From Escherichia coli (GTDB taxonomy: Bacteria > Pseudomonadota > Gammaproteobacteria > Enterobacterales > Enterobacteriaceae): a DNA stretch of 64,000 bases. Location of the stretch: assembly GCF_030384885.1 (NCBI RefSeq), contig NZ_CP128613.1. The stretch is one strand, 5' to 3'. The position numbers and the translations under genes were made by a program. Under the pieces are notes generated by a model. The model did no database searches and was not told where the DNA came from. It was given only the letters and a program-made list of their open reading frames with translations. Below, piece by piece: positions 1,992 to 55,140 of this stretch (its first letter is position 1; each line of letters opens with the position of its first letter).

Positions 1992-4900
1992 TTATTTCAT
2001 CGCCTCCTCGCCCGTTGCCGTATTGGCATCCACCGCGGTAATGGTCACCGTCACTGGCTTCATTTCGTACCCGCCATAGGTCAGGGCGTTAAATGTGAAC
2101 GTATAGACACCAGGCTTGCTGGTACTAAATGTACGCGTGATTTTTCCGCTCACGAAATGGTCATTTTTCGACGGCAGGAACTGATAATCCTTCTCCGTCA
2201 CCCCTTCCGGCGTCTGAATGTCGACCCACATATTCCCGCCAACGGGGTTATTTGCCGACATCAGGGTCACCTCCAGCTTCGCAGTCGATTTCCCATCCGC
2301 CACCAGAGATTGCACATCAGATGATGCGGCGAGCACCGCGTTTTTATCATCCGCCACGAAACTGGATTCAGCCGTTTTCGTTGATACCTGACCGTTGTCC
2401 TGACTCACTTGCGCCGTAAGTGTATATTTCGCTGCAACAGTCGTGGTGGCGGTGAAAATAGCCTGCCCTTGCTCATTCGTTGTCGCTGTGCCATTCGGTT
2501 CCAGGTTTAACGAAGCCGGGCTGGCGGTCAGCGTCACTTCGCTATCTTTCAACAAATTGTTATTGGCATCAGTCACCGTAACTTTATACGTCTGTTTGGC
2601 TTTGCCATCCGCCACTGCACGGTTGCCAATCACCTCAATACTGGAGATGGTCGCCGTAGTCTTATCCGCCACAAACGTAATGCTCTTCGCGTCTGAAGGC
2701 TGGTTATTTCCTGCTGAAGCCGTGATCTCATACGTTCCGGCAGTCACTGAAACCACCTGCAACTCTGCTTTCCCCTCATCGTTGGCTTTCACCCAGACAT
2801 TATCGCCAGTAAGCGGTTTGACACCCCGGGGCAGATTAAATGTCACCAGAGTTCCTGGAACAGGGTTACCGTTTTTATCCTCAACGGTCGCCGTCAGCGT
2901 AAAGGCATCTTTGCCGTTTGCCACTTTTTGAGCGGCAGTGTCAACCTGCAGGTTTGCCTGACCGGTGCTGGCGTCTGCGTTGAATTTCACCGTGACCGTC
3001 TTCTGAGCATTATTCACTGAGGCCGTGATACTGTGTTCCCCAGCAACGGTTGCTATCAACTCAATGTCCGCTTTACCTGCCGCATTGGTTGTTACTGTAT
3101 TCCCCGTCTTGCTAGTCACACCCTGCGGTAAAGTCAGCGTAACTTCTTGCCCCTGCAACGGGTTACCATAGCTGTCCACGACGGTCAGGGTTACCTGGTT
3201 AGCAGACTGTCCATTTGCCAGTTGGTTATTCACCTTCACCGCCATATCACTGATCACTGCCCGGGAAGCGTCGCCTGCAACATTCAGCACCAATGGCTGA
3301 GCAACGGCATTTTGGCCGTTCACGCGTGGCATGACAGACAACTGACCTGCAGCCGATCCCAGCGTTAAGGTCGACACGTAGACCCCATTACCTTTCTCTG
3401 TCCAGTTTCCTGCTGAAGGACGCTCACTCCCCGTGCTGGCGGCACCGCTAAACACTGGTGCATCTGGCTTCAGCCCGGTGACCGGGTTCCCGTACGCATC
3501 CTTCACGGTGAAGGTGAGTTCCGTCGTCGTTTTAACCGTTGGAGTCTTATTGTCCGCAACAAGCGTAGAGTTCGCTGATGACATCTCCCCGGCGATGACC
3601 GTCAACTGCGCGGCTTCGGTGGCTGCTGGCTGGCCGTTGAAGAGCGGCATGACACGAAGCTCGCCCGTCTTTCCGCCTGTGGTCAACGTAGCAACATAGG
3701 AACCGTCACCTTTTTCGGTCCAACTGGAAATAGTCGCCCCTTCAGAGGCGGTCCCCGTCAAACTTGCCGACAACGAAAGACCACTGATAGCGTTGCCATG
3801 CGCATCTTTCGCCACCAGCGTCACGGTTGTGCTTTCGCCTGCTTTTACGCGATCTGCGGCTACAGACACTGTCGACTGGCCTGAAGATAACGCATCAGCC
3901 ACCACGGTTACTTTTGCCGCGTTTGCTGCCGCGTCCTGCCCATTGAGCTTCGGCATAACCTCTAATTCACCCGCCGTAGAGCCGAGAGTAATTTGCGCAG
4001 TCCACGTCCCATCACCATTATTTGTCCAGCCCGATGCCGTAGAACCTACAGCAGCGGCACCCGCTAATGACGGCGCTTCCGGCGTGAGGCTGGTCACAGG
4101 GTTGTCATAGGCATCTTTTGCCGTCCAGATTGCCGTAACTGTACCGCCAACCACCGGTTTATCAGGATTCAGTGTGATGGACGAATGTGCTGCATCAAGC
4201 GGCCCGGCAACAAACTTCAGCGTTTGTTGTAACGTGCCCAGCTGATACTGCTCGCTGAAGGCACGCACAACAACGTTTCCGGCACGGGTCGAAGAAACCG
4301 TGGCGCTGTAAACCCCTGGTTTTATTTCCGAAATGGCACCAACGGTTACACCATTAGTGTCTTGCGGAACAAGTCGCAGGCGGCTGGCTTCTCCCGTCAC
4401 CGGATTACCCTCGGAGTCCACCGCTGTCAGTGTCAGCGTGTAGGCTTGCTGACCATCAGCAACCACATCACCTGACGGCTCGTTAGCGCTCAGGGTGGAG
4501 TTTGCCACATCCATCATCGTGGCCCGCAGTTCTGCAGTGACAGTTTTGCTCATGTCATCAACGCTAACAGTAATCGTTACCTCACCTGACTGCGTTCCGG
4601 TAGTAAAGACAGACTGATACACCCCTGCTTCAGTTTCGGTGAACTCACCCAGTGTGGGTTTTGCCTGTGATTTAGTGGCCTTCAGGGTACGAGTCACAAT
4701 ATTTCCAGCCGGTTTGAAGGTTAGTTCAGTCTTGATCTGATCTTTCATGCCCGTGACTGGCTGGCCCTCGGCGTCGCGCAGAGACAGCACCAGCGGCTTT
4801 TGCTCATTACCGTTAGCAAGCATTTGAATACTGCTCTGACCGTCAAGCGTTAACGCCGTACGATCGGCGCTCATACCAGCTCCGCTAATAACCACTTCTG

Positions 4901-11542: not shown

Positions 11543-12014
11543 ATATCTATTACTCTCCCGAGAGTAAAACTATCAAACCAATGAGTAACCGATACAGCCT
11601 CGCAAATTCTTTCAGATAATTAACCCGTCACTGCGGCACGTTCTCTCATAAGGCGTGCCTGCTGTGTAATCCAGTATGTATCCGGCATACTTGACGGTTT
11701 AATAGAACTCAATTCCTTTCCCAGGTTACCAACAACGATATCTTGTATAACACCCCAGGAGATACGACATTATGATGAGATGAGGTATGCTCCTCAGCGC
11801 CAATCAACGCCAGGGCTGGGCCAGTTTTGAGATCAGACTCATTCCCGGACTGACTTCAGGCGACATATATCAATGACGTTGGGGCAATAAAAGATAGCCG
11901 ATGTAATACATCTATTCAAATTTGTGATACATGTCAAAAAATTGGTTGACCAAACTCGTTATTTATATAAGGGCACTTACGAAGTGCACTCTTTTTTAAA
12001 GCGAGGAAGTACCA

Positions 12015-20084: not shown

Positions 20085-20763
20085 GACCCTGCTGACAGTG
20101 GTCTGTATGCTGGCGACACCTTTGACACAGGCGATTTCGGTCGGCAATCTGACTTTTTCACTGCCGTCCGAGACTGACTTTGTCAGCAAACGTGTAGTGA
20201 ATAACAACAAAAGCGCGCGGATATACCGTATTGCCATCAGTGCCATCGATAGTCCAGGCAGCAGTGAATTGCGCACTCGACCGGTGGATGGTGAACTGCT
20301 TTTCGCTCCCCGCCAGCTGGCGTTGCAGGCTGGTGAGAGTGAGTATTTTAAATTTTACTATCATGGTCCACAGGATAACCGCGAGCGCTACTACCGGGTC
20401 TCATTTCGCGAGGTCCCCACTCGCAACCAGACAAGACGCAGCCCAACCGGCGGCGAGGTCAGCACGGAGCCGGTGGTGGTGATGGATACCATTCTGGTAG
20501 TACGACCTCGTCAGGTTCAGTTTAAATGGTCCTTCGACCAGGTGACAGGAACGGTAAGTAACACCGGCAACACGTGGTTTAAGCTACTGATTAAACCAGG
20601 ATGTGATTCGACCGAAGAGGAAGGCGACGCCTGGTATCTACGTCCGGGAGACGTAGTTCATCAGCCTGAGTTACGTCAGCCGGGGAATCATTATCTGGTC
20701 TATAACGACAAATTCATTAAGATTAGCGATTCCTGTCCTGCTAAGCCCCCTTCGGCGGACTAA
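20053..20763 (+). CDS. ecpE: pilus chaperone-like protein
   Basis: Internal Met ([11 protein letters not shown]) gives 236 aa; overlaps ecpD 3' end. Confidence 0.8.
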
Positions 20764-21076
20764 GACTTATCCATCGGACGAGGGAAGAATTCCACCTCAG
20801 AGACTCAAATAATCGTTTAAATGATGTGGAAGCGATCGTCAATGTCACCTGTAATGATGGGCTTTCTCATATGTACACCATAGTGTTCAGGAGACACGGA
20901 AAAGTGCCAGGCAGCCTGCTAACGAGTGGTTTCTTCACGAATTAGTACGTAAAATCGGTAACGGCTGGAAATCATTCAATACTCACACTATCGAAAGTTC
21001 CCCAGCCAACCGCGGTACGTTCTTACATACGATGTACCGCTGTTCTCTTTACGATTTATAGCTGTACTGGTGAATT

Positions 21077-21406
21077 ATGAGCAATCTGAATCCATGCATG
21101 ACGTGTGGTGCCTGTTGTGCATTTTTCCGCGTCTCTTTTTACTGGGCCGAAGCCGACGATGCTGGCGGTACCATTCCCGCCAGGCTCACTGAACAAATAT
21201 CCCCTTTTCACCGATGCATGAGCGGTACCAATCAGAAAAACCCCCGATGTATTGCCCTTGCAGGAACACCGGGCAAAAATGCCTGCTGCACGATATATAA
21301 AAATCGATCGTCCACGTGCAGAGAATTCGCCATGTCTGGTGAGAACGGAGAAGTCAATGAGGCTTGCAATCGTGCAAGAGCTAAATACGGGCTGACACCG
21401 TTATAA
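21077..21406 (+). CDS. ykgJ: Cys-rich ferredoxin-like/zinc-binding protein
   Basis: 109-aa ORF with CxxCxxCC and further Cys clusters. Confidence 0.8.
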
Positions 21407-21654
21407 ATATGCAATAATTAATTGCACTGCCCCGCCAGCTATAATCGCGGGGCTTCGTTTTTCAGGGATAACAAAACCCGAAACTTCTTCCATCTGCCAG
21501 CAACAATGCCTCTTCCTCTATAGTGTTCTCCGGATCTACAGCATCCTGAAGTAGCGCGATGTACTCACTGGCTATCTGCATCAGAAAGTTAAAAACAATG
21601 TTTTTAACCTATAAAAATGGCGCTGTATTTGCGCCATTTTTATCATTCAATGCA

Positions 21655-22500: not shown

Positions 22501-22730
22501 ATGCAAAACCTGAACACCCTGTGGTATTCCCCTGGCATTATCACTTTCGCGATTAACCAACAGCCAGACCAGCAAACACGCCACTACAGGCACAGCAAAA
22601 TCCATCAGGCTTGCCACACCCCATGCGTGCGGCTCAAAGCCGCCCCGCCATGGCATATTAATCCGCTTACCATTTTCGAACAGCTGATTGGTTTAGTCCG
22701 GTGTTTCCCTGCTTGCACTTAAAAATGAGC

Positions 22731-23351: not shown

Positions 23352-24695
23352 TCATTTCTTTGCCGCGCTTTTATTGCACTTCTTACAGCCTTCAATCAAT
23401 TTTTCAGTTATTATATAATAATAAGGAATGTAAATGTTTAACCCGCAAGTTTTAATCGAATCGAAAGCAAGAACTTTCACAATGGATTCTTCTCCATCTT
23501 TCTCCATTAGCAATATATCACTTAAAGGCAAATCATTAGGATTGTAAATCCTCACATCGCCAGGCTGTCTTTCATAGGCTTCGATGTCATCACCTGGTTG
23601 GCCATAGGCTAAATGAGTGGCTTTAATCCAGTTTATTGGTTCAGCATTTTGACACCAGGAGATTATTTTTTCTAATTTTTCAGGTGTGTAAGCTTTTACA
23701 TAATCTCCATGTTTTTCACATCTACCTAGTTCTGAAAAATGGCCCAGGGTGTATTCATAAGAATAATCACCAGCAGTCAATGGTAGTCTAAAGTATTGCT
23801 GAGGCAATGCCTTCTGGACTTTGGTTTTACTCAGCAAATTAAAGGTGATATCATAAAGTTGATATAGACAAACACCCTCTCGATCTGGATATCCATAAGG
23901 CTTGATGTCAGAAAGCATCTCAATATCAGAATTATAAACACTTGCATAATCATCACTTCCAAACATGAAAAAACCTTTTGATAGAATGAATATTGCATTA
24001 GGAAGAACGTTTTTTTCAAAATTCTGCGAGTGAGTTTTTATTTCTTGTACTATGTCCATCCAATCCATATCAGTATCATAGGCGAAGATAATTCCAAAAC
24101 CATTAGTCTGAATTCTCTCCTCTGAATGTATAAATATGTTCTGATTTATACCATGTTTCTTTAGTTTTTTGAATGAGCGGATATTTTCGAAAGCACTTTT
24201 CAGTTCTTTTTTTGTTAGTTTTGACTTAACCTGAATCACACCATAGCAGTACTCCACAGGTAAAACCTCAAAAATTTCCTGTCGCTGCATAAGCGAAAAT
24301 GAATTAAAAGCATCATAAAAAAGAATGTCGATTTCATTACTGAGATGTCCTGAGGTTGACGCTACACGGACACTTGATTTTGAGATGGCATAGCTTTGCG
24401 GTAAGAGTTTATTTTCATTGAAAAAGCATCTTAAGAGTTCCTCTCTGACAGTACCAACATCTCTTGGATGCTTAATATCTTTCGATATTTCAAAATCTTG
24501 AAGCATTTTCCTCTGTAAGTGAATGAACTCCCTTTCAAGACCATAAAATTCTTTATCTTTAGATCTCAGTTTGCTTGCACGAGAAACTTGATCGGATATC
24601 CATTCCTTTGTGCGAGACTCTCTCTCAGCAAAATCATCACGTTGTTTTTTTACAGCACCGGTCAAGCGTTTTCTTGTGTTTTCATTATCGGACAT
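23352..24695 (-). CDS. hypothetical protein, low GC; possible PD-(D/E)xK / Mrr-like nuclease fold
   Basis: 447-aa ORF; motif ..SNEIDILFYD..(about 25 aa)..YGVIQVKSKL reminiscent of a D...(E/Q)xK nuclease core; AT-rich relative to neighbours; no confident family assignment. Confidence 0.55.
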   Translation of the reverse strand: MSDNENTRKRLTGAVKKQRDDFAERESRTKEWISDQVSRASKLRSKDKEFYGLEREFIHLQRKMLQDFEISKDIKHPRDVGTVREELLRCFFNENKLLPQSYAISKSSVRVASTSGHLSNEIDILFYDAFNSFSLMQRQEIFEVLPVEYCYGVIQVKSKLTKKELKSAFENIRSFKKLKKHGINQNIFIHSEERIQTNGFGIIFAYDTDMDWMDIVQEIKTHSQNFEKNVLPNAIFILSKGFFMFGSDDYASVYNSDIEMLSDIKPYGYPDREGVCLYQLYDITFNLLSKTKVQKALPQQYFRLPLTAGDYSYEYTLGHFSELGRCEKHGDYVKAYTPEKLEKIISWCQNAEPINWIKATHLAYGQPGDDIEAYERQPGDVRIYNPNDLPLSDILLMEKDGEESIVKVLAFDSIKTCGLNIYIPYYYIITEKLIEGCKKCNKSAAKK

Positions 24696-25214
24696 AAATT
24701 AACCTTAAGTTGATAAGTTTTGTGGTGAATTTATAAAGCCTGAGGGATAAACATTTATAGTCTATAAGTTACTATTTATTTGAGATAGTAAGCCAATTTT
24801 ATTAGATGAAGAAACGTTCATAACCTCCTCAACTACGTTTCAATCGGCAACATCGGAGAAGTACACTTTGACAATATATAGCATATTGAAGCAGCTGTAA
24901 CTTAGAGCGCGTACACTCAAGATTTCCCGCTGCGGTGATGGCGGACGACTGCGTTTGATAACTCATTTCCCTCACCAACTATCGGACCTGTTCCTGATTG
25001 ATTATCACATTATAATGTGAGCAATGTCCGCTCCTAGCACATAGCAGTTCTAGAGACAATGGCGTAAAGTCATGGAGAATCGGTGGGAGGATATTCAGTT
25101 TCATTCATGCCGAAATACGGTAAAATCTATAACAGATAGAAATCATTCAATATTCGCACTATCAGAAGCTGGCCAGCCAACCGCGCACGATTTTGCATAC
25201 GACATGCTACGGTT

Positions 25215-25814
25215 TCATTTATCTCCGACCGGAAACTTCTTATACAGTGTCGATACACCAACATCATAGATGATCTCCACCTTCTGGCGAGGAACGCCTG
25301 ATGCAATTAATCGCCCGGCCTGCGCCCTTTGTTCTGGTGTAAGTTTGGGACGACGTCCACCAATTCGTCCCTGTGCGCGAGCAACTTCCAGTCCAGCTTT
25401 TGTTCGTTCAACAATCAGTTCTCGTTCCATTTCAGCCAGGGCACCCATCACATGAAAGAAAAAACGCCCCATCGGTGTGCTGGTATCAATAGCATCCGTC
25501 AGGCTGCGAAAATTAACGCCACGTTCGCGCAACTCCTCAACCAGAATGACCAGATGGACAAGCGTGCCGGGACCGGGTTTATTCAGCGCTTCAATCAGGC
25601 GATCGCGCTGGTCAAAGCAGTCATCTCCCACCACATAAGCTGTGATGGACGGGCGGAAAGTGACTTTTCCCAGATCTTCGGTATAGGGCTTGTCGCGGTT
25701 CGGGTATTCATGTGTTTCCACACGGCGACCGGTTCCCGCACTTTCTTCTTCAACCTTAAACGGCACACCTCGAAATGACGCATCCTGAAGCCTGTCTTTC
25801 CACGTCATATACAC
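25215..25814 (-). pseudogene. chimeric ORF: C-terminal half of a Pin/Gin/Hin-family serine DNA invertase fused to a Mu-N-like (DNA circularisation protein) N-terminus
   Basis: C-terminal about 110 aa (VEELRERG..FRSLTD.IDTSTPMGRFFFHVMGALAEMERELIVERT..GGRRPKLT..) matches invertase C-terminus and HTH; catalytic Ser-containing N-terminus missing; first about 85 aa (WKDRLQDASFRGVPF..GRRVETHEYPNRD..EDLG) resembles phage DNA_circ_N proteins. Confidence 0.6.
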
Positions 25815-26491: not shown

Positions 26492-27623
26492 CTACCAAAA
26501 TCGGGTATAGCCAACATCGTGATTTATATCAATGCCACTGGAGCGTGTTTCCGTAACCCGCATACCTGGTGGCATATTTATAAATGATACCTTGATCTCA
26601 CCATCAACTTTTGGCGCGGTAGCTTTATTAATCATGAAGGGATTCGGGCCTGTGGCATCGGAGGCGTTGTTTGCCTGAGCCGGATCCACCGCCGGATAAG
26701 GAGTGTATCCCCGTGCCGGTATTCCCGTCTTCGATATTGTTGAAGGTGGCGCGATCGGTGTTCTGCACCATGTGCAACGGCACCCGGAACAGACGACAGA
26801 TTTCTTCAAGCTGAAACTTGCGGGTTTCCAGGAACTGGCTGTCCTCGGCGTTCAGCGCCATCGACTTCCAGTCCAGCCCCATCTCAAGGATCATCGGGCG
26901 GTGAGCATTACCAAGCCCGGTGTGACGCTCCTCAAAATCTTTCTTCAGGCGCTCATAAGCCTGATCCGACAGCGTCTGTTCTGTACGCAACACACCCGAC
27001 GTCACCGCGCCATTGCTGAACAGTCTGGCCCCGTGCTCTTCGGTCGCAGCTGCCAGCGATATTGCCTCACGGGCATAGGCGATGGGATTCAGTCCCACCA
27101 GACCGTCCAGCGTCAGCGTGCGCACATGCCAGATATCCTCCTGGCTCAGTACATCCGTGGAGCCATCCGGGAATGTGACCTGATAGACCGGCTCCCAGCT
27201 ACTGTTAAGCTTCGGTACCACACAGCCGGGATCGACGGGCAGCAGTTCAGCCACTTCGCCAAATGCTTTCACTTTGTAGGCGTAAAAGTTTCCCCGCAGG
27301 CACAGACAGGTGACCACCAGCTCCCAGAACTCCTGCGGCGTCATATAGCCATTGGGATGCGTGGAGATCAGCTTATGCAGACGTTCGCCAGTGGCTCTCT
27401 GCTTCAGGCTGCCGTTCAGGTGATACAGGTTGCAGGGCAACATCCCGACCGACTCCGCCAGCACCCTGACACAGGAAAAAACCGCCGTCAGTCGCATGGC
27501 CCGCTGGCTGCTGATCTGCTTTCCGGTATAGGTGTCGTAGGACAACCCGATGGCATCCGCCAGCTCTGCTGGCGTGGTCACCGGTGCGTCACTTTTTCGT
27601 TGAAATAATCCCGAAAAGAACAC
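26492..27623 (-). pseudogene. phage portal protein (HK97-family), frameshifted and 3'-truncated
   Basis: 331-aa ORF with portal-like N-terminus continues in another frame as a 105-aa ORF (26492-26809); normally followed by protease/capsid genes, which are absent. Confidence 0.6.
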
Positions 27624-27805
27624 TATTTACCTCCGCCGACAGACAGCTGTGTACGATCGAGATATCGCGCCACCAGCCACGACCAGAACAGGCACAGCGC
27701 CCCGGCAACAACAAAACCCGCCGGGGGATAAATCAGCCAGGCACCATATGCCAGCAAAAGCGCACCCAGCACGCCCACCAGAGGCGCGAGAATCAGCATG
27801 ATCAT
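27623..27805 (-). CDS. small hydrophobic phage protein
   Basis: 60-aa ORF, two hydrophobic stretches, between terminase and portal. Confidence 0.3.
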
Positions 27806-27816
27806 AATTACCTCAG

Positions 27817-29550
27817 TTAAAGCGAGCGGATCCCGTAGGACTCAATGTGGTCAGACAGCGTGTCTTCTTTCTCGTACAGCATGGCTCTGCCAACCGCCAT
27901 AATCAGCGCAACTGCACCATCGATTTTGTTTTCCGCCTGCTCTTTGACGGGTTTCACCACATCATCGTTACCCGGAATGGTTTTGCCGACCACGTTGCCG
28001 ATACACCAGGTCATGATGGGATTGCCGTCATGATGAAAGCGCCCCGATTCAATTGCCGCTTCCAGCTCTTTCATCGGGTCGGACATGTTGGTGTAGTTCT
28101 GAATGATAGTGATGGGGTTCAGGTCTTCATCAGCAAGGTCATGTGACAACCCGGTCGCCCCGAAGGGGTCGATGGGTGACTCACTGACCGGGCTGATTTT
28201 GTTCGCCGCTTTGGCCTCCTCGAGGATGTAGCGATAATCCACCTCCGCACCATCGGTAACGGTCAGAACGCCCATTTCCACCCATTTCTGAAAGCGTTCG
28301 GCTGTCCGTCGATCTTCATTTTTCTCGACGCTGTACACCGTGTCATACGGTACCCAGAAACGCGGGGCCACACTGTAGTAATGCGTTTTACCGTCAATCT
28401 CGCGGGTATAAAGTCGCGCCATGCTGTTCATATCCAGCTTACGCGCCAGGTCAAAGGCCAGAATGCACGGCTGCCCCTCGAACTGCTCAAGAGTCAGTGA
28501 TTTATCCTCGCATCTCTGCCAGCTCACCAGGTTGAAATACGCCGAACGCGCCGACACCCAGATATTGAGGTGTTTTGTTTTAAAGACGTTTGCCAGACGG
28601 GCGTTATTTTTCGCACGTTGCTGCTGGCTTAACAAAAACTCGCGATAAACCGACACACCGATATTCGGGTTAGCTTTTTCAAGTACCTGCGGGTCGGTCC
28701 AGTCGTCGCCTTCGTCAACGGTATAGATGATCCCGAACAGTTCATCGTTGGGCACCGAGCCGTTGAGCATCTCGATGACTTCCCGCCGTTTGTCGTAGCA
28801 CGGCCCCTCAATGTTGTACCCGGCGGTGGTAATGGCCCACATCAGTGGCTGGCGTCGCGCCCCCATCCCGGTAAGCATCGTGGTGTAAAGCGCATCTGTG
28901 GCGTGCTCGTGATATTCATCCACCACCGCACAGTGGGGTGATGAACCATCACCGGGGTTACCGATCAGCGGTTCAAACCGCGCACCATCCTCCGGACGGT
29001 TCATGTTTGAGGCGTTAACCTCAATCCCGAACGCTTCCGTCAGCATGGGTGTGCGTTTACACATCAGTCGTGCCGGACGAAAGACTTCCCATGCCTGTTT
29101 CTCCGTCGTGGCACCGGAATACACTTCCGCGCCGAACTCGTTATCACAGGCAAAACAATACAGGGCGACACCGGCAGAGATTGCCGATTTGCCGTTCTTA
29201 CGGGGGATTTCGGTATACACCTCACGGAAGCGGCGCAGCCGGGAGCCTTTATTGACCCAGCCAAACGCGCAGCAGATCACAAAGAGCTGCCACGGCTCCA
29301 GCGTGATGGGCATCCTCTTAAATGCCCACTCACCCTTGGTGTGCGGCAACAGCTGAATAAATTTCGCGGCCCGTTCAGCCAGGTCCTTGTCGAAGCGGTA
29401 ACGAAACGACTTACTTTTTTCCTCCATCAGGTCATCAAGATGGCGCTGGCAGGCCTGAATCACAAACTGGCAGGCCACAATCTTTCCGTGCACGACATCA
29501 CGGGCATACTGATTGGCAGCATTTACGTTGGGGTAAGATTTCCGGCTCAT
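27817..29550 (-). CDS. phage terminase large subunit
   Basis: 577-aa ORF with ATPase Walker-like region and C-terminal nuclease region; overlaps small-subunit stop (ATGA). Confidence 0.9.
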
Positions 29551-30050
29551 GATTCGATGATTTTCAGAAACGGGTTAGTGGCTTTCTTCTGCCCCGCCAG
29601 GCCAATCAGACGCTGGCGGCTGCTGGGGTCGAGTCCGAGCATTGCCCCCGTACTGCTCATCTCGGACTCCTGTTCTTTTTTGGCGGTCAGCTCCGGATTT
29701 TTGACCATACCGCCCATTGCACCGGTGATGGTGTTGCCCTGTCTGGCAATATTTTTCACGGCACGTCGCCAGAACTCGTAGGCCACGCACCACCGCTCAA
29801 GCACCGCGAGGTCAGTCACGCACAGCAGGCCCTGACCGCAGAGTTCTTTAGTTGTCAGTTGCCACATGATCGTGGCGAGAGGGAGATCTTCTTCAGCGAA
29901 CCACTCCGGTGGCTCAACACCTTTGATGGGCGTAAAAACAGGTTCATCTTTATTCAGGGCTCGCTTGCCGGGGTTTCCGGCCAGCGCCTTGCGCGCCGTT
30001 GGCTTGGGGCGACGCCCGGAACGCCCCGCCGTTCCAGCCATATGCGGCAC
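29547..30050 (-). CDS. phage terminase small subunit (P27-like)
   Basis: 167-aa ORF, basic N-terminus [22 protein letters not shown], immediately upstream of large subunit. Confidence 0.8.
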
Positions 30051-30166
30051 TCCTGGTTAAATTTCATTTTTCGCGGGTATAAAAAAACGATGGGGCGGGC
30101 AGTCCGGAAGACGTCAGGTCACAGGGATTTGACCCGCCCCTCCCCTCTGGCAGTGGGAACTGGTTC

Positions 30167-30517
30167 TTACTTCAGCCGTTCACGGGCCGTCTTCGCCTTA
30201 TGACACGGCCAGCACAAACTCTGCAGATTACTGTCGACATCAGTGCCGCCATGCGATTTAGGGATGATGTGGTCAACGGTCTTCGCCTCACGCACCACAC
30301 CAGCACGCAGACATAACTGACACAGGCCTTTGTCACGCTTCAGGACACGCGCGCGGATACTGTCCCACTTCGAACCGTAGCCGCGCTGATGACGGGATTG
30401 TCCAGGTTTGTATTGCTTCCAGCCTTCGCTTTTGTGGCTTTCGCAGTAGCCTGAAGGGTCCGTGGTTGTAAAGCGGCAGCCGCGAACACGGCAGGCTTTT
30501 GGGGTTCGTGGGGGCAT
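30167..30517 (-). CDS. HNH endonuclease (phage packaging-associated)
   Basis: 116-aa ORF with CxxC...HIIPKSHGG..D..NLQSLCWPCH HNH motif. Confidence 0.85.
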   Translation of the reverse strand: MPPRTPKACRVRGCRFTTTDPSGYCESHKSEGWKQYKPGQSRHQRGYGSKWDSIRARVLKRDKGLCQLCLRAGVVREAKTVDHIIPKSHGGTDVDSNLQSLCWPCHKAKTARERLK

Positions 30518-31041
30518 ATGTACTCCAATGAAGAAACCAGCGAAATAGCTGCCTTCATTCGTAGTAAACCTTTTTCATCAACGCAGTAATGGATTCTTTG
30601 AAGAGTCGCGATCAATACAACTCACTAATGGAGAGACTTGTCTCACGCATGAGACAAATTTCCCGTTTGATTTAATGGACACTATAGAGGGACAGAATGC
30701 CTTCCTCACTCGAATCACATCAATTAAGGAGGTTCAACATGTTTCATTCCACAAGTCATCAGGCTGTAATTATGGCAGCATCAGTTTGTGCCAAAGACCT
30801 TTTCCGCTTCACTTTGAGCCTGATTCATTTCTACCTGACCGGCTCGCCTCTATCTTTTTAATCCCCGCTTTATCCAAATTGCATTGCCATAATGCCGACA
30901 ACACACTGACATTCAAATCCAGACTACCTCCAATAGTCTGACCGTACACCTATATAGTTTTAATTTTCATCAATCCATTTAACTATCGTTTAATTGTTGT
31001 CACATAGGATTCTGCCGTTTTTAACAATGCAGGATAATAAG

Positions 31042-31335
31042 ATGAAAAAAATGTTGTTTTCTGCCGCTCTGGCAATGCTTATTACAGGATGTGCTCAACA
31101 GACGTTTACTGTTGGAAACAAACCGACAGCAGTAACACCAAAAGAAACCATCACCCATCATTTCTTCGTTTCGGGAATTGGACAGGAGAAAACTGTTGAT
31201 GCAGCCAAAATTTGTGGCGGCGCAGAAAATGTTGTTAAAACAGAAACCCAGCAAACATTCGTAAATGGATTGCTCGGTTTTATTACTTTAGGCATTTATA
31301 CTCCGCTGGAAGCGCGTGTGTATTGCTCACAATAA
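31042..31335 (+). CDS. bor: Bor/Iss-family outer-membrane lipoprotein
   Basis: 97 aa from internal Met; lipobox LITGC; closely matches recollection of lambda Bor. Confidence 0.9.
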   Translation: MKKMLFSAALAMLITGCAQQTFTVGNKPTAVTPKETITHHFFVSGIGQEKTVDAAKICGGAENVVKTETQQTFVNGLLGFITLGIYTPLEARVYCSQ

Positions 31336-31366
31336 TTGCATGAGTTGCCCATCGATATGGGCAGCT

Positions 31367-31828
31367 CTATCTGCACTGCTCATTAATATACTTCTGGGTT
31401 CCTTCCAGTTGTTTTTGCATCGTGATCAGCCTCTCTCTGAGGGTGAAATAATCCCGTTCAGCGGTGTCTGCCAGTCGGGGGGAGGCTGCATTATCCACGC
31501 CGGAGGCGGTGGTGGCTTCACGCACTGACTGACAGACTGCTTTGATGTGCAACCGACGACGACCAGCGGCAACATCATCACGCAGAGCATCATTTTCAGC
31601 TTTCGCATCAGCTAACTCCTTCGTGTATTTTGCATCGAGCGCAGCAACATCACGCTGACGCATCTGCATGTCAGTAATTGCCACGTTCGCCAGCTTCAGT
31701 TCTCTGGCATTTTTGTCGCGCTGGGCTTTGTATGTAATGGCGTTATCACGGTAATGATTAACCGCCCATGACAGACAGACGATGATGCAGATAACCAGAG
31801 CGGAGATAATCGCGGTTAATCTGTTCAT
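31367..31828 (-). CDS. Rz: i-spanin Rz
   Basis: 153-aa ORF, N-terminal TM, coiled-coil; closely matches recollection of lambda Rz. Confidence 0.9.
31426..31608 (-). CDS. Rz1: o-spanin Rz1 (embedded in +1 frame of Rz)
   Basis: 60-aa ORF with lipobox VVGC and proline-rich PPPPP segment, fully inside Rz. Confidence 0.8.
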
Positions 31829-32301
31829 ACCTCAATCTCTCTGACCGTTCCGCCCGCTTCTTTGAATTTTGCAATCAGGCTGTCAGCCTTATGCTCGAAC
31901 TGACCATAACCAGCGCCCGGCAGTGAAGCCCAGATATTGCTGCAACGGTCGATAGCCTGACGAATATCACCGCGATCAATCATCGGTAAAGCGCCACGCT
32001 CTTTAATCTGCTGCAATGCCACTGCGTCCTGGCTTTTGGGGGAGAAGTCTTTCAGGCCAAGCTGCTTACGATAGGAATCCCACCAACGGGAAAGAAGCTG
32101 GTAGCGCCCGGCTGCTGTTGATTTGAGTTTTGGGTTTAGCGTGACAAGTTTGCGAGGGTGATCGGAGTAATCAGTAAATAGCTCTCCGCCTACAATGACG
32201 TCATAACCATGATTTCTGGTTTTCTGCCGTCCGTTATCCGTTCCTTCTGACCATGCCACCATATCGAGGAAAGCTTTACGCTGAGGATTAAGATTTTGCA
32301 T
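31825..32301 (-). CDS. R: endolysin, lambda R-type lytic transglycosylase
   Basis: 158-aa ORF closely matching recollection of lambda R (..[31 protein letters not shown]..). Confidence 0.9.
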
Positions 32302-32605
32302 TTTTCACCCCTGTCAGTCGTTCCCAGAAGTACGTCAGTGCAACCGAACCCATCGCACCACTAATCCCCGCTGTCGCGAGAATCATGTAAATACTGAATC
32401 CACTTTCGATGCTGATCAGGCCACCAATAACACCGGTGAATCCTGATACCACTATCTGAGCCAGAGCATTTATCCAACTCCACGTTGCTTTACTCTGCTT
32501 CACATCTATCAGGTAGCGGACTAGACCGCCCCAACCTGCGATGATCAGCAAAACGAGCCAGAACGCTCCGGCAAGGCTCTCTTTTTCGTGCATATGAATA
32601 GCCAA
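32288..32605 (-). CDS. putative holin
   Basis: 105-aa ORF with hydrophobic helices, overlapping start of endolysin; not lambda S-like. Confidence 0.55.
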   Translation of the reverse strand: MAIHMHEKESLAGAFWLVLLIIAGWGGLVRYLIDVKQSKATWSWINALAQIVVSGFTGVIGGLISIESGFSIYMILATAGISGAMGSVALTYFWERLTGVKNAKS

Positions 32606-32711
32606 TGTTTCGCCGCCGACAAAAGGCCGGGACGTTAAATGTCAGAAATCAGGCTCACGGGGTAATTTAACGACAAAGCACGGAGTTGATGCTCCCCGCA
32701 AGCCTGGAATA

Positions 32712-32734
32712 AAAAAGCCAGCATGTAGCTGGCA
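32712..32734 (-). terminator. intrinsic terminator of short late-promoter transcript (tR'-like)
   Basis: On minus strand GCCAGCTACATGCTGGC hairpin followed by TTTTTT, between Q and the holin. Confidence 0.5.
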
Positions 32735-32914
32735 ACAGAGGGTTAAGCAATATCAACTCAACAGCTGAAGACACCCTGGCTGGGGTACATTGGAAGGATA
32801 CTCACCGCCCAGAAACAGAAAAGCCCAAGGCTTTAAACCTCGAGCTTGAATTTGGATTACTGCCAGTGCGTACAACATTGGCAAAATATCAGATTTATAT
32901 GAAATATATGCTTT

Positions 32915-33604
32915 TTAATCCAGTTTTGCAATATTTTGCTGTGAAAATGTCGCCTTTTGTTTTGAACGTGTTCTCGTTAGAAGCAATAAAGCTTCGCTAT
33001 CAAGCTGTAGAAAAATGTGCTTCATTGCAACCCAGCGTTCAGTGAATGTCTCAGACCAGTTTTTTGATGTCACTCCCACCAGTGACGCCAGTTCCTGGTA
33101 TTCATAAGCCTCACGCCCTGCCAGTTCGCTCTTCACATCCTGTGCCGCCAGCCAGATCAACTTCTTCAGGCGTTCCAGTGTCTTACCTGCAATTTTTCTG
33201 GTACCCAACAGAGTCTTAAACTCGCTCCATGCCCACTGCGTTATGGCAACCTGATGCTCCCAGCGAATATTTTCACTGTAACTCCACAGCAACCATGCTT
33301 TCTGATGCTCATCGAGAGACAGAACAGCGCGGCGCCATGAAGAGGTTGAAAACTCGACCGGACTGATCAGGGCGACAGATGAACCTTTTGCGTACGACTG
33401 TTTACCGGAAATCGGCAGATTATCCAGCATAATAATCTTGCCAGTTACCTCATCCAGAATGCGTCGCTTCTTTCGTTTGTATGTACCAGTATCAAATTGT
33501 GCATGCTCCAGCCAGGCTTCAAGCTGGCCTTTCGTTGCTCCGCTCAAGTCAGCGGTAGCCACCATGAGTTGCTCGCGGACATATTGTAAATATTGGGTAT
33601 TCAT
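32915..33604 (-). CDS. late-gene antiterminator Q-like protein
   Basis: 229-aa ORF directly upstream of the lysis cassette and downstream of rusA; position-based, not lambda-Q-like in sequence. Confidence 0.55.
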   Translation of the reverse strand: MNTQYLQYVREQLMVATADLSGATKGQLEAWLEHAQFDTGTYKRKKRRILDEVTGKIIMLDNLPISGKQSYAKGSSVALISPVEFSTSSWRRAVLSLDEHQKAWLLWSYSENIRWEHQVAITQWAWSEFKTLLGTRKIAGKTLERLKKLIWLAAQDVKSELAGREAYEYQELASLVGVTSKNWSETFTERWVAMKHIFLQLDSEALLLLTRTRSKQKATFSQQNIAKLD

Positions 33605-33737
33605 GCGGCAGCTCCTTTCAGTGTTTTGGCGTAATTCCTCAGTATTCGGTAATCGGTCAAAACAGAACCGGGGAAACGATATAAGCGCAGATGCCCCCAG
33701 CGGTGGCGAAGAAGTTCTGCCATATAAAACTCAAACA

Positions 33738-34100
33738 TCATTCATTCCCCATTTCGGTGATGGTCAGTTCCAGCCTCCCACCTTTGGTAACAGGCATCTT
33801 CACAACACGGTAATCAACGACCTGAGCATCATCCAGCCAGAAACCTGCTTTAGTGAGTGCGTCAAAAGCGGCTTTTTGCAGATTATCCAGGTCACGGCGA
33901 CGGCGATCCGGCATGTGGCACTCAATGCGGATTTTCACAGGCATAGCCAGGCCGATATCCAGCATTGCGTTTTTAATGATTCGGGCGACGTTATCGCGGT
34001 ATGCCTGCCCCTCTGCGCTGACGTGCGTGCGCCCGCGATTATGGCGGTAATAGCGATTATTGCTCGGAGGCCAGGGTAATGTGATGCTGTAGGTATTCAC
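33738..34100 (-). CDS. rusA: Holliday junction resolvase RusA
   Basis: 120-aa ORF matching recollection of RusA (..[31 protein letters not shown]..). Confidence 0.85.
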
Positions 34101-34387
34101 GCCTTAATAACCCCCTCTTTCAGCCAGATAACCTGTGTTCTCGCCATACCTTCCAGCGCGCATTCTTTTGCATATGCAGCATCGACAAAATGTGTGCGGC
34201 GGTCGATTTCGTCGTGGCAGGCAGAACATGCAATGGTGGCAATCAGGTCTGGCGGTTTGGTACCGGTGCCGCACAATCCAGTCAGCCGGATATGTGCCAG
34301 TACAGACGTTTCAGGGTTGCCATTACATACGCCAGGGATTCTTACCTGGCATTCCCGACTACGCGCTGCTTTTCTCAAATCAGCCAT
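34097..34387 (-). CDS. phage protein, Cys-rich (DUF1364/YbcO-like)
   Basis: 96 aa from [10 protein letters not shown]; four Cys; nin-region position. Confidence 0.5.
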
Positions 34388-34550
34388 GATTCCTCCTTGC
34401 TGCCAGTCGCAACCATTTTTTATCAACCAGGCTGGCGGTATATCCGAGCAGTGTTGGTATTTCGGAAGGCTTCAGCTCCGGTTTACGCTTACGACGATTT
34501 GGTACTCTGTAGATGTGTCCGTTCATGACACGAATAAGCGGTGTAGCCAT
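34380..34550 (-). CDS. NinE-like small protein (56 aa)
   Basis: [56 protein letters not shown]; stop overlaps next start; not in ORF track. Confidence 0.45.
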   Translation of the reverse strand: MATPLIRVMNGHIYRVPNRRKRKPELKPSEIPTLLGYTASLVDKKWLRLAARRNHG

Positions 34551-34831
34551 TACGCCTCCTGTTTGTCGCGGAGCTGCTGGAACTCGCAGCTCTGCGGAAT
34601 AGTCAGGTGGCAGCCAATATTCATCGCCCAGGCTTCAACCTTACACAGGAAGACATACATCTCTCCGGTATCAAGATCGGAGGTATGGCGTAACGACTGG
34701 ATAGTGGTGATATCACCGGTTACGACATCAACCAGGTCTTTGGTTTCATAACCGAGATATGTGTGTTTGAGAGCATCTTTTACCCAAGCTGGAGTGGCGA
34801 ACGTTTTACAGGCAACACGCAAAGACCCCAC
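34550..34831 (-). CDS. phage nin-region protein, possibly 5'-truncated
   Basis: 93-aa ORF abutting the integrase upstream region. Confidence 0.35.
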   Translation of the reverse strand: MGSLRVACKTFATPAWVKDALKHTYLGYETKDLVDVVTGDITTIQSLRHTSDLDTGEMYVFLCKVEAWAMNIGCHLTIPQSCEFQQLRDKQEA

Positions 34832-34942
34832 TAAACCAAAATCTCCTTACCTCACAACGCGACAAGCCTGCATTGCGGCGCTTCAGTCTCCGCTGCATAC
34901 TATCAAGGTGAGCGCGGGTGATGGCATAACAGAGGAAAGAAA

Positions 34943-36106
34943 ATGTCACTCTTCCGCAGAAGTGAAATATGGTACGCCAGTTTCACATTGCCGAACGGTA
35001 AAAGATTTAAACAGTCTCTTGGAACAAAGGACAAAAGGCAGGCGACAGAGCTCCATGACAAGCTAAAGGCTGAAGCATGGCGGGTCAGCAAACTTGGTGA
35101 AATACCTGATATGACGTTTGAGGAAGCGTGTGTCAGGTGGCTCGAAGAGAAAGCACATAAGAAATCACTGGACGATGACAAAAGCCGGATCGGATTCTGG
35201 CTTCAACATTTCGCAGGGATGCAACTAAGAGACATCACTGAATCAAAAATTTATTCAGCGATGCAGAAAATGACAAACCGGCGTCATGAGGAAAACTGGA
35301 AACTCAGGGCAGAAGCATGCAGAAAAAAAGGGAAACCTGTTCCAGAATACACGCCAAAACCAGCGTCCGTTGCAACGAAGGCTACGCATCTTTCATTTAT
35401 AAAGGCCCTGCTAAGAGCCGCAGAGCGTGAATGGAAAATGCTGGATAAGGCACCAATTATTAAAGTGCCTCAACCGAAGAATAAACGTATCCGCTGGCTG
35501 GAGCCTCATGAAGCACAAAGGCTGATTGATGAATGTCCGGAGCCATTAAAGTCTGTTGTTGAATTTGCACTGGCAACAGGCTTAAGACGCTCGAACATCA
35601 TCAACCTTGAATGGCAACAAATAGACATGCAGCGCCGGGTGGCATGGATAAACCCGGAAGAGAGTAAATCAAACCGCGCAATTGGCGTTGCGCTGAATGA
35701 TACTGCATGTCGCGTATTGAAAAAACAAATCGGGAATCATCACCGTTGGGTATTTGTATACAAGGAAAGCTGTACCAAACCAGACGGAACGAAAGCGCCA
35801 ACGGTCAGGAAGATGCGGTATGACGCAAACACAGCCTGGAAAGCGGCGCTGAGACGAGCAGGTATTGATGATTTCAGATTTCACGACTTGAGACACACCT
35901 GGGCAAGTTGGCTGGTTCAAGCCGGAGTCCCGTTGTCAGTGTTACAGGAAATGGGAGGCTGGGAGTCTATCGAAATGGTTCGTCGATATGCTCACCTCGC
36001 ACCTAATCACCTTACCGAACATGCACGGCAAATAGACTCGATCCTGAACCCATCGGTCCCAAATTTGTCCCAGTCAAAAAATAAGGAAGGTACTAATGAT
36101 GTGTAA
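34943..36106 (+). CDS. int: tyrosine integrase (P4/DLP12 IntD-like)
   Basis: 387-aa ORF with HDLRHT...YAHL catalytic tail, ending 15 bp before the tRNA 3' end. Confidence 0.9.
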
Positions 36107-36166
36107 CTTATTGATTTAAATGGTGCCGATAATAGGAGTCGAACCTACGACCTTCGCATTACGAAT
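36105..36166. repeat. right 62-bp direct repeat (att copy overlapping tRNA-Thr 3' end)
   Basis: Identical to 22852-22913. Confidence 0.8.
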
Positions 36167-36196
36167 GCGCTGCTCTACCAACTGAGCTATATCGGC
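36121..36196 (-). tRNA. thrW: tRNA-Thr (anticodon CGU)
   Basis: Reverse complement reads GCCGATATAGCTCAGTTGGTAGAGCAGCGCATTCGTAATGCGAAGGTCGTAGGTTCGACTCCTATTATCGGCACCA; cloverleaf-compatible, CCA end. Confidence 0.9.

Positions 36197-51544: not shown

Positions 51545-51895
<351 letters not shown>

Positions 51896-54984: not shown

Positions 54985-55140
<156 letters not shown>

Follow-up and report, generated by a model that had tools for sequence, protein, structure and literature searches.

Introduction

In bacteriophage lambda, the int transcript ends beyond attP at sib/tI, which serves as a retroregulator and terminator. The moron, a unit composed of promoter, gene and terminator, is a concept said to go back to Juhala et al. 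in 2000, and conserved “boundary sequences” at the junctions of lambdoid modules were reportedly described by Clark et al. in 2001. Here, we analyzed a 64,000-nt stretch of Escherichia coli DNA (contig NZ_CP128613.1 of assembly GCF_030384885.1; hereafter the window), in which a non-coding element of about 100 nt occurs twice, as copy A in the spacer between ecpE and ykgJ and as copy B beside a pin fragment. We consider it moderately probable that this element is a structured 3′-untranslated region (3′-UTR) plus intrinsic-terminator module of lambdoid phages, located at the tail-fibre end. Features of this kind, in which a phage terminator is joined to a structured 3′-UTR and placed at a mosaic junction, are already familiar; the family itself appears to be undescribed and variously mis-annotated, even though lambda and almost all E. 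coli genomes contain it.

Compared with lambda sib/tI, the element is likewise structured and non-coding, lies at the distal end of a leftward operon past att and combines a hairpin with a terminator; however, it is found distal to sib itself or after dinI, ea31 or cargo genes, and it has two hairpins, P1 and P2, and an invariant loop. No resemblance between the sib and element sequences was seen by eye, no formal comparison having been made. As in moron terminators, P2 or the whole element follows acquired genes (dinI, ea31, ea47 and a GIY-YIG gene) on the coding strand, whereas here one and the same sequence recurs among numerous unrelated cargo genes and phages, with an additional conserved 60-nt 5′ part. 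With the boundary sequences it shares the property of being a short conserved stretch at which the flanking modules switch abruptly, but its compensatory changes indicate that it is kept for its fold and not merely as a homology patch. The anti-small RNAs AgvB and AsxR are comparable in being prophage-borne, short and multi-copy in O157, with a hairpin, a U tail and a conserved single-stranded segment, while they lie elsewhere in the prophage, 3′ of PR′ (PMC4104026); their supplement sequences showed no resemblance to the element by eye, without formal alignment. IS009/EcsR2 is also a non-coding RNA locus in the same small E. coli core block, yet it occupies another spacer with another sequence (21449-21649, − strand) and has an Rfam family, which the element does not. 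A later paper is said to report a phage origin for EcsR2.

Homology and distribution of the element

Alignment of the two copies gave 82% identity over 66 ungapped bases (20949-21014 versus 25120-25185), with the similarity spanning about 100-120 bases and containing a single 1-base indel. A covariance model (R1), which was trained on other members of the family and then run on the 64-kb window, placed the structurally intact copy A at 20949-21050 (+ strand; 105.4 bits, E 3.7e-23) and the degenerate copy B at 25120-25220 (+ strand; 81.2 bits, E 4.2e-17). No other strong match was found in the window, and a third one, at 11564-11672 with 25.6 bits, is probably due to chance. The core common to both copies opens with GTAAAATC (at 20949 and 25120, respectively) and closes with a hairpin and a T-rich tail. 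The two segments paired by a first-pass annotation of the window, which had been made from the sequence alone, are therefore real and homologous, and the positions that it gave for them (20928-21047 and 25097-25216) were right apart from beginning some 20 bases early.

When copy A was used as the blastn query against 5426 complete E. coli genomes, a search that the annotation had itself proposed as a check, 15,956 places were obtained in 5393 of these genomes (median 3 and maximum 9 in each), and copy B as the query gave a similar distribution. This revealed a multi-copy family, so that the description of the segment as present twice, true within the window, understated its occurrence. Chance similarity is ruled out by the BLAST and covariance-model E-values together with the family size. 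The copy between ecpE and ykgJ was present at ≥80% coverage in 5023 of the 5426 genomes, K-12 included, which agrees with the earlier assignment of copy A to core DNA. Within K-12, a further full copy lies upstream of ynfT-ydfK-pinQ at the left end of Qin (NC_000913.3, 1632470-1632568), and a partial, P2-only copy at the end of Rac (24729-24769 of locus L148); both are unannotated, and prophage e14 has no copy.

Among the phages in the phage collection, the element was found in lambda, HK97, HK633, HK106, phi80, phiP27, phage 21, phi458 and many Shiga toxin (Stx) phages of the Stx1 and Stx2 types; the full lambda copy lies at 24169-24296 between ea31 and ea47, and the HK97 copy at 20932-21040. 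An exact-pattern scan of IMG/VR, with a pattern of 22 bases that all fall within the P1 loop, recovered at least 120 loci. The same pattern scanned against one genome per bacterial species yielded 15 stretches, with convincing copies on long contigs in Escherichia only. Several of the non-Escherichia matches were short contigs 84-97% identical to E. coli sequence; among them, the very short, low-coverage contigs L138 (Lysobacter sp. A03, 401 bp), L139 and L140 resemble the ecpE-ykgJ spacer and, given this level of identity to the E. coli spacer, are almost certainly assembly contamination by E. coli. With the exception of L134 and L146, two loci from metagenome-assembled genomes, the remaining stretches resembled the element over a short distance only, or not at all beyond the 22-base pattern, which they probably match by chance.

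Neither copy A nor copy B had a match in Rfam at the gathering thresholds, and in a permissive E-value scan of copy A the best match was CssrB, with 18 bits against the 76 needed. In the searchable literature, neither the element sequence, in DNA or RNA letters, nor a description of it was found.

Two hairpins with conserved pairing

Across 91 distinct copies, the element is about 100 nt long and is composed of P1 followed by the adjacent P2, with the consensus GTAAAATCGGTAACGGCTGGAAATCATTCAATACTCGCACTATCGAAAGTTCACCAGCCAACCGCAGCACGTTCTTGCATACGACGTGGCTGCGG and usually a T-rich run directly after it. Homology among the copies ends abruptly at both edges, giving way to at least six unrelated classes of upstream flank and many downstream ones. 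In copy A, the P1 stem is formed by GGCTGG (20963-20968) and CCAGCC (21002-21007) on the + strand and encloses a 33-nt loop; a 26-nt part of the P1 loop, GAAATCATTCAATACTCACACTATCG, is near-invariant. P2 and its T-rich tail occupy 21009-21053 on the + strand, with the arms ACCGCGGTACG (21009-21019) and TGTACCGCTGT (21033-21043). P2 has 11 pairs, one bulge and a loop of 9-13 nt, and its free energy averages −17.3 kcal/mol. As + strand RNA, copy A folds with −28.9 kcal/mol and a z-score of −4.20, and the intact copies range from −3.5 to −4.2, in contrast to copy B with +0.10 on the + strand and +1.10 on the − strand.

To evaluate the pairing, 99 matches (91 of them distinct) were aligned under the guidance of the model. 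In this alignment, which was fitted to the structure, standard pairs occupied 91.8% of 1542 cells; this fell to 23-53% when the 3′ partners were slid by 1-3 columns. Two-sided changes were found in 11 of the 17 pairs (68 cells), and none of 500 shuffles reached any of the five pairing measures. Most of the covariation signal comes from P2, which is 91.7% paired and has two-sided changes in 8 of its 11 pairs; P1 is 92.1% paired, with two-sided changes in 3 of 6 pairs and few compensated cells. These compensatory changes indicate that P2 is under selection for pairing, and P1 to a lesser extent. The earlier opinion that a structured RNA is not supported, reached by comparing the two window copies, is thus overturned by the two helices seen across the 91 copies: the two-copy comparison misleads because copy B is degenerate (fold z +0.1, versus −4.2 for copy A).

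The variability of the first 25 positions of the P1 loop was 0.016, compared with about 0.15 in the P2 arms, a difference to be read with the caveat that the collection pattern itself demanded 22 of the loop bases; copies found by the model only (e.g. L032:1719 and L054:4066) were just 2-3 loop positions off the consensus. Downstream of P2, at least 4 T within 7 nt were present in 56 of the 91 distinct copies and at least 5 T in 42, the tails being TGTTCTCTTT in copy A and TTTCATTT in copy B. Such T-rich 3′ flanks arise in many unrelated flanks, where homology has already ended.

A fixed place at the end of leftward phage units

All of the phage matches fall on the minus strand of their records, and the window + strand is therefore the leftward one on the phage map. 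With 131 copies oriented to the window + strand and their nearest open reading frames (ORFs) taken, a DinI gene on the same strand was found to end upstream in 56 copies (median distance 8 nt) and an integrase on the same strand in 12 (median 93 nt in 8 copies and 293 nt in 4). On the other side, converging on the element, were a Pin-type invertase gene in 35 copies (median 38 nt), a tail-fibre assembly gene in about 25 and a tail-fibre gene in 6. Phage copies thus sit where leftward units, dinI or int/attP/sib, meet converging tail-fibre or pin genes, and every full copy examined, the ykgJ spacer aside, stands at the distal end of a lambdoid tail-fibre/pin module.

Individual phages illustrate this arrangement. 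The order in HK97 is int, att core, sib/tI, the element directly after the annotated sib, and the converging tfa, and that in the Stx1 phage VT1-Sakai (prophage Sp15) is attL, SOS box with promoter, dinI, the element, a truncated ykgJ-like ORF and the converging tail-fibre genes. Lambda has its full copy after ea31 and a hairpin-only (P2) copy after ea47, just ahead of the converging tfa (4635-4732 of locus L005, record positions 22565-22662). Similarly, strain 90-1 shows a full copy, a GIY-YIG gene, a hairpin-only P2 copy (4130-4175 of locus L002) and then pin. Cargo genes are often bracketed in this way, the full element preceding them and a P2 copy following, and several IMG/VR loci (L032, L054 and L064) contain two or three copies that all point the same way and are separated by cargo. 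A diverged copy in phage 21 (2550-2650 of locus L010) scores 53.7 bits and is followed, after about 160 nt, by a same-strand cargo operon of the sitABCD type, an iron/manganese transporter whose sitA-C genes fall within the stretch analyzed.

Neither strand of the element showed a promoter-like site in the four loci inspected (the window, HK97, VT1-Sakai and lambda), which favours a 3′ module over an independent gene. Together with the fixed place after stop codons or sib, the selection on P2 pairing, the T-rich flanks and the lone P2 copies after cargo, this argues for a module that would close leftward units (int-attP-sib, the SOS-controlled dinI and b-region cargo such as ea31) at the converging tail-fibre/pin end. 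On the + strand, P2 with its U-rich run would act as an intrinsic terminator and P1, with the invariant 26-nt loop, as a structured 3′-UTR element, and the whole may insulate the leftward unit from the converging late genes.

Strand, function and competing explanations

Several observations weigh against this 3′-module reading. The loop is far more conserved than the stems, which a plain terminator does not explain; about a third of the copies have a poor U tail after P2; and a simple terminator scan (loop of 3-8 nt, at least 5 T of 8) calls P2 in no locus, because its 9-13-nt loop exceeds the limit and its U run is interrupted. Default RNAalifold missed the helices in both the plain MAFFT alignment and the model-guided alignment, and RNAalifold with RIBOSUM scoring recovered them. 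As to the strand, P2 does not differ in stability between the two, 79 of the 91 copies fold more stably over their whole length as − strand RNA, an inner 7-bp helix (UUCGAUA/UAUUGAA) is perfect on the − strand only, and the only Hfq peak listed near a copy in O157 Sakai lies on the opposite strand. This peak, EcOnc47, was mapped to 2896476-2896522 (− strand) in Sp15 (Tree et al., 2014, PMC4104026); it is antisense to the dinI 3′ end (977-1023 of locus L132, − strand), about 20 nt from the element and outside its conserved core. The Sakai list, obtained by cross-linking and analysis of cDNA (CRAC), contains no + strand Hfq peak at the Sp15 copy (2896543-2896643), with the limits that the list uses the coordinates of an older genome version, which may be offset, and that reads from multi-copy sequences may have been lost. 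Elsewhere in the Sakai prophages, the EcOnc31/43 locus at the right end of Sp5 has no copy of the element, and EcOnc22 was rejected as a candidate on account of its position between tail genes.

The loop invariance could alternatively point to an unrecognized family of phage-borne structured RNAs, in which the loop would have a role beyond termination, as a 3′-UTR regulator or decoy binding a host RNA or protein, or in which P2 would be a joint for capturing and stacking cargo; we hold this only tentatively and think it rather unlikely. Of the points on strand listed above, the − strand stability of the whole element, the inner helix and EcOnc47 speak for a functional RNA from the window − strand, either the structured 3′ end of the late-operon/pin transcript or an antisense RNA that starts here and runs into the dinI 3′ end. 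The − strand folds reach z-scores of −4.6 and −5.4 (−4.03 in copy A), and P1 shows no + strand excess of G·U over A·C (20 versus 27). However, the lower − strand free energy is due in part to a G+U-rich composition, and the z-scores are merely comparable to those of the + strand; neither hairpin directly precedes a U run on the − strand, which leaves no obvious 3′ end; and the G·U to A·C ratio in P2, 71:32 when read as + strand RNA, favours the + strand. Taking into account also the uncertain placement of EcOnc47, we regard a − strand RNA as unlikely. An independent trans-acting small RNA (sRNA) gene of about 85-90 nt, starting just after TAAAAT and ending at P2 with the loop as seed or protein site, would account for the near-invariant loop displayed in a hairpin and for a terminal hairpin with a U tail; the −10-like TAAAAT coincides with the 5′ homology boundary, and other prophage sRNAs are known in E. 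coli (PMC4104026). Nevertheless, at the level of sequence there is no −35 box, the six upstream flank classes share nothing, and the four loci inspected for promoters gave no match inside the element, which in its 56 dinI-linked copies starts almost at the end of that gene. A U-rich stretch ahead of P2, usual in Hfq modules, is missing, as is a + strand Hfq peak in the Sakai list, and pairing of the loop with lambda translation-start regions was no better than in shuffles, 36% and 82% of which equalled or beat it. Such a gene is therefore, in our estimation, distinctly unlikely.

At the DNA level, the element might be a recombination linker at a mosaic boundary, for swapping or stacking cargo, or part of an attachment (att) site. 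In its favour, the homology stops precisely at the two edges, beyond which many unrelated flanks follow, and direct repeats of the element or P2 flank cargo (lambda ea47, the GIY-YIG gene, and L032, L054 and L064); on the other hand, the compensatory changes in P2, and less so in P1, would be needless for a mere homology patch, and we judge a DNA-level role quite improbable. The GenBank record of HK633 labels the element (20680-20760; 2501-2581 of locus L004) “attP” and likens it to the non-coding region between ykgJ and yagV of MG1655. This label is probably wrong, because the lambda copy lies 3.4 kb from the mapped att and the element is accompanied by unrelated integrases; the HK97 core, too, lies apart from the element (about 190 bp), the integrases stand at varying distances, some loci hold two or three copies, and in the window neither copy lies where prophage and host meet. 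The first-pass suggestion of a regulatory module or recombination site pointed to the right neighbourhood, the att-site version of it not being borne out, while its further suggestion of a mobile-element end is not supported, given the lack of terminal inverted repeats and the single kind of phage position, the ykgJ spacer aside. A miniature inverted-repeat transposable element, or a repetitive extragenic palindromic (REP) or enterobacterial repetitive intergenic consensus (ERIC)-like element, was likewise rejected, as the end sequences GTAAAATC... and ...CTGCGG do not form an inverted repeat and none is reported beside either window copy. Scarcely credible, finally, is a coding-gene fragment or small protein. 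It could appeal to two open frames in the consensus, to the 41-63-aa hypothetical ORFs annotated across the element in some lambda-family records (lambda imm21 and phage 21), and to strain 90-1, where PGAP labels an 81-nt (27-aa) piece of the element as a “capsid protein” pseudogene. Yet the indels between copies are of 1, 4 and 6 bases, i.e. not multiples of three, variability by codon phase is flat (0.109/0.074/0.087), copy B has a stop codon in the frame of the annotated lambda-family ORF, and the annotated ORFs vary among phages in start, length and frame. ORFs overlapping the element had no significant match in Pfam or PHROG (best E 0.19), the 27-aa piece included, in line with the earlier remark that neither copy carries a conserved ORF and at odds with the identification as a known gene fragment that would have refuted the annotation.

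Copy A and a fossil prophage end between ecpE and ykgJ

Upstream of copy A lies a decayed dinI relic (20826-20948, + strand), whose ORF at 20826-20945 resembles DinI residues 38-51 (9 of 14 identical, E 8e-5), with the ...EWF... C-terminus persisting in another frame. Downstream, ykgJ (21077-21406, + strand) encodes a CxxCxxCC-domain protein (Pfam PF03692, E 3.1e-11), and the YkgJ N-terminus matches H0002, the ykgJ-like ORF of VT1-Sakai, at 21 of 31 residues (E 2e-12). A 309-bp block at 20884-21190, which takes in the first ~114 nt of ykgJ, is 83.8% identical to the VT1-Sakai stretch composed of the dinI 3′ end, the element and the start of the ykgJ-like ORF. The block homology, the dinI relic and the match between YkgJ and H0002 together identify the ecpE-ykgJ spacer as a fossil prophage end, in which dinI is dead and ykgJ intact, while dinI is intact and ykgJ truncated in the phages. 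Copy A would thus derive from a prophage-end block of dinI, element and ykgJ, which was fixed in the core genome of E. coli and in which dinI has decayed.

Copy A lies 185 nt after ecpE, and its terminator-like P2 module 26 nt ahead of the ykgJ start. Since this hairpin is the sole terminator-like structure between the two genes, P2 of copy A may now end the ecp fimbrial operon, a role suggested by its position and predicted fold.

The neighbouring yagU-ykgJ spacer contains an Rfam match to IS009 (21449-21649, − strand, 199.6 bits), and the sRNA EcsR2 has been mapped to the same spacer (Raghavan et al., 2015, PMC4350180). As both belong to that spacer, IS009/EcsR2 was rejected as an identity for the element.

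Copy B in a heavily deleted prophage

As the first-pass annotation had stated, copy B lies inside a prophage remnant directly 3′ of a pin fragment. Its decay is evident from a P1 5′ arm mutated to AGATAG and a 1-base deletion in P2, by which both stems are lost. An upstream extension of copy B (25023-25119, + strand) is common to the subfamily of lambda, phi458 and phage 21, and blastn aligned 25023-25206 with lambda at 76.8% identity and 25020-25221 with phi458 at 83.8%. The converging ORF at 25215-25814 (− strand), whose stop abuts copy B, is chimeric and joins a Mu-type DNA_circ_N domain (PF07157, aa 9-87) in frame with the C-terminal half of a Pin/resolvase protein (PF00239, aa 85-150; PF02796, aa 153-195). 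This ORF is a deletion scar, with most of the tail region removed, and the arrangement at copy B equals that of strain 90-1 minus the GIY-YIG gene. Copy B would accordingly be, in our reading of the gene order, this module with its stems since lost, marking the distal end of a prophage that sits at tRNA-Thr and has undergone heavy deletion.

The remainder of this deleted lambdoid prophage extends over 26628-36196 on the − strand and includes genes for the Q antiterminator, Rz, an HNH protein, the small and large terminase subunits and a truncated portal; its integrase (34943-36106) adjoins tRNA-Thr(CGU) at 36121-36196. On the other side of copy B, an isolated cargo gene at 23352-24695 (− strand) encodes a 447-aa DUF6602 protein (E 4.6e-23) and is separated from yagU by an apparent integrase-like remnant at ~22.5-22.8 kb, where the tested ORF had no Pfam match. 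Further along the window, three − strand matches to the Rfam family naRNA4 (CssrE) were found at 51612-51689, 51730-51807 and 55055-55131 (78-88 bits); these are repeat-derived, nucleoid-associated and unrelated to the element.

Implications

If the 3′-module reading is true, an element of about 100 nt belonging to lambda, HK97, phi80, the Stx phages and nearly all E. coli has gone unannotated or mislabelled, and naming it would clean up annotations such as attP, the “capsid protein” pseudogene and the small hypothetical ORFs. The ecpE-ykgJ spacer would be recognized as a fossil prophage end that provides a candidate terminator for the ecp fimbrial operon. For the lambdoid phages, the element would represent a compact and testable 3′ module shared by many lysogenic-conversion genes (dinI, ea31/ea47, a GIY-YIG nuclease gene, NleG-like genes and sitABCD), and the invariance of its loop is the part that could prove to be more than housekeeping.

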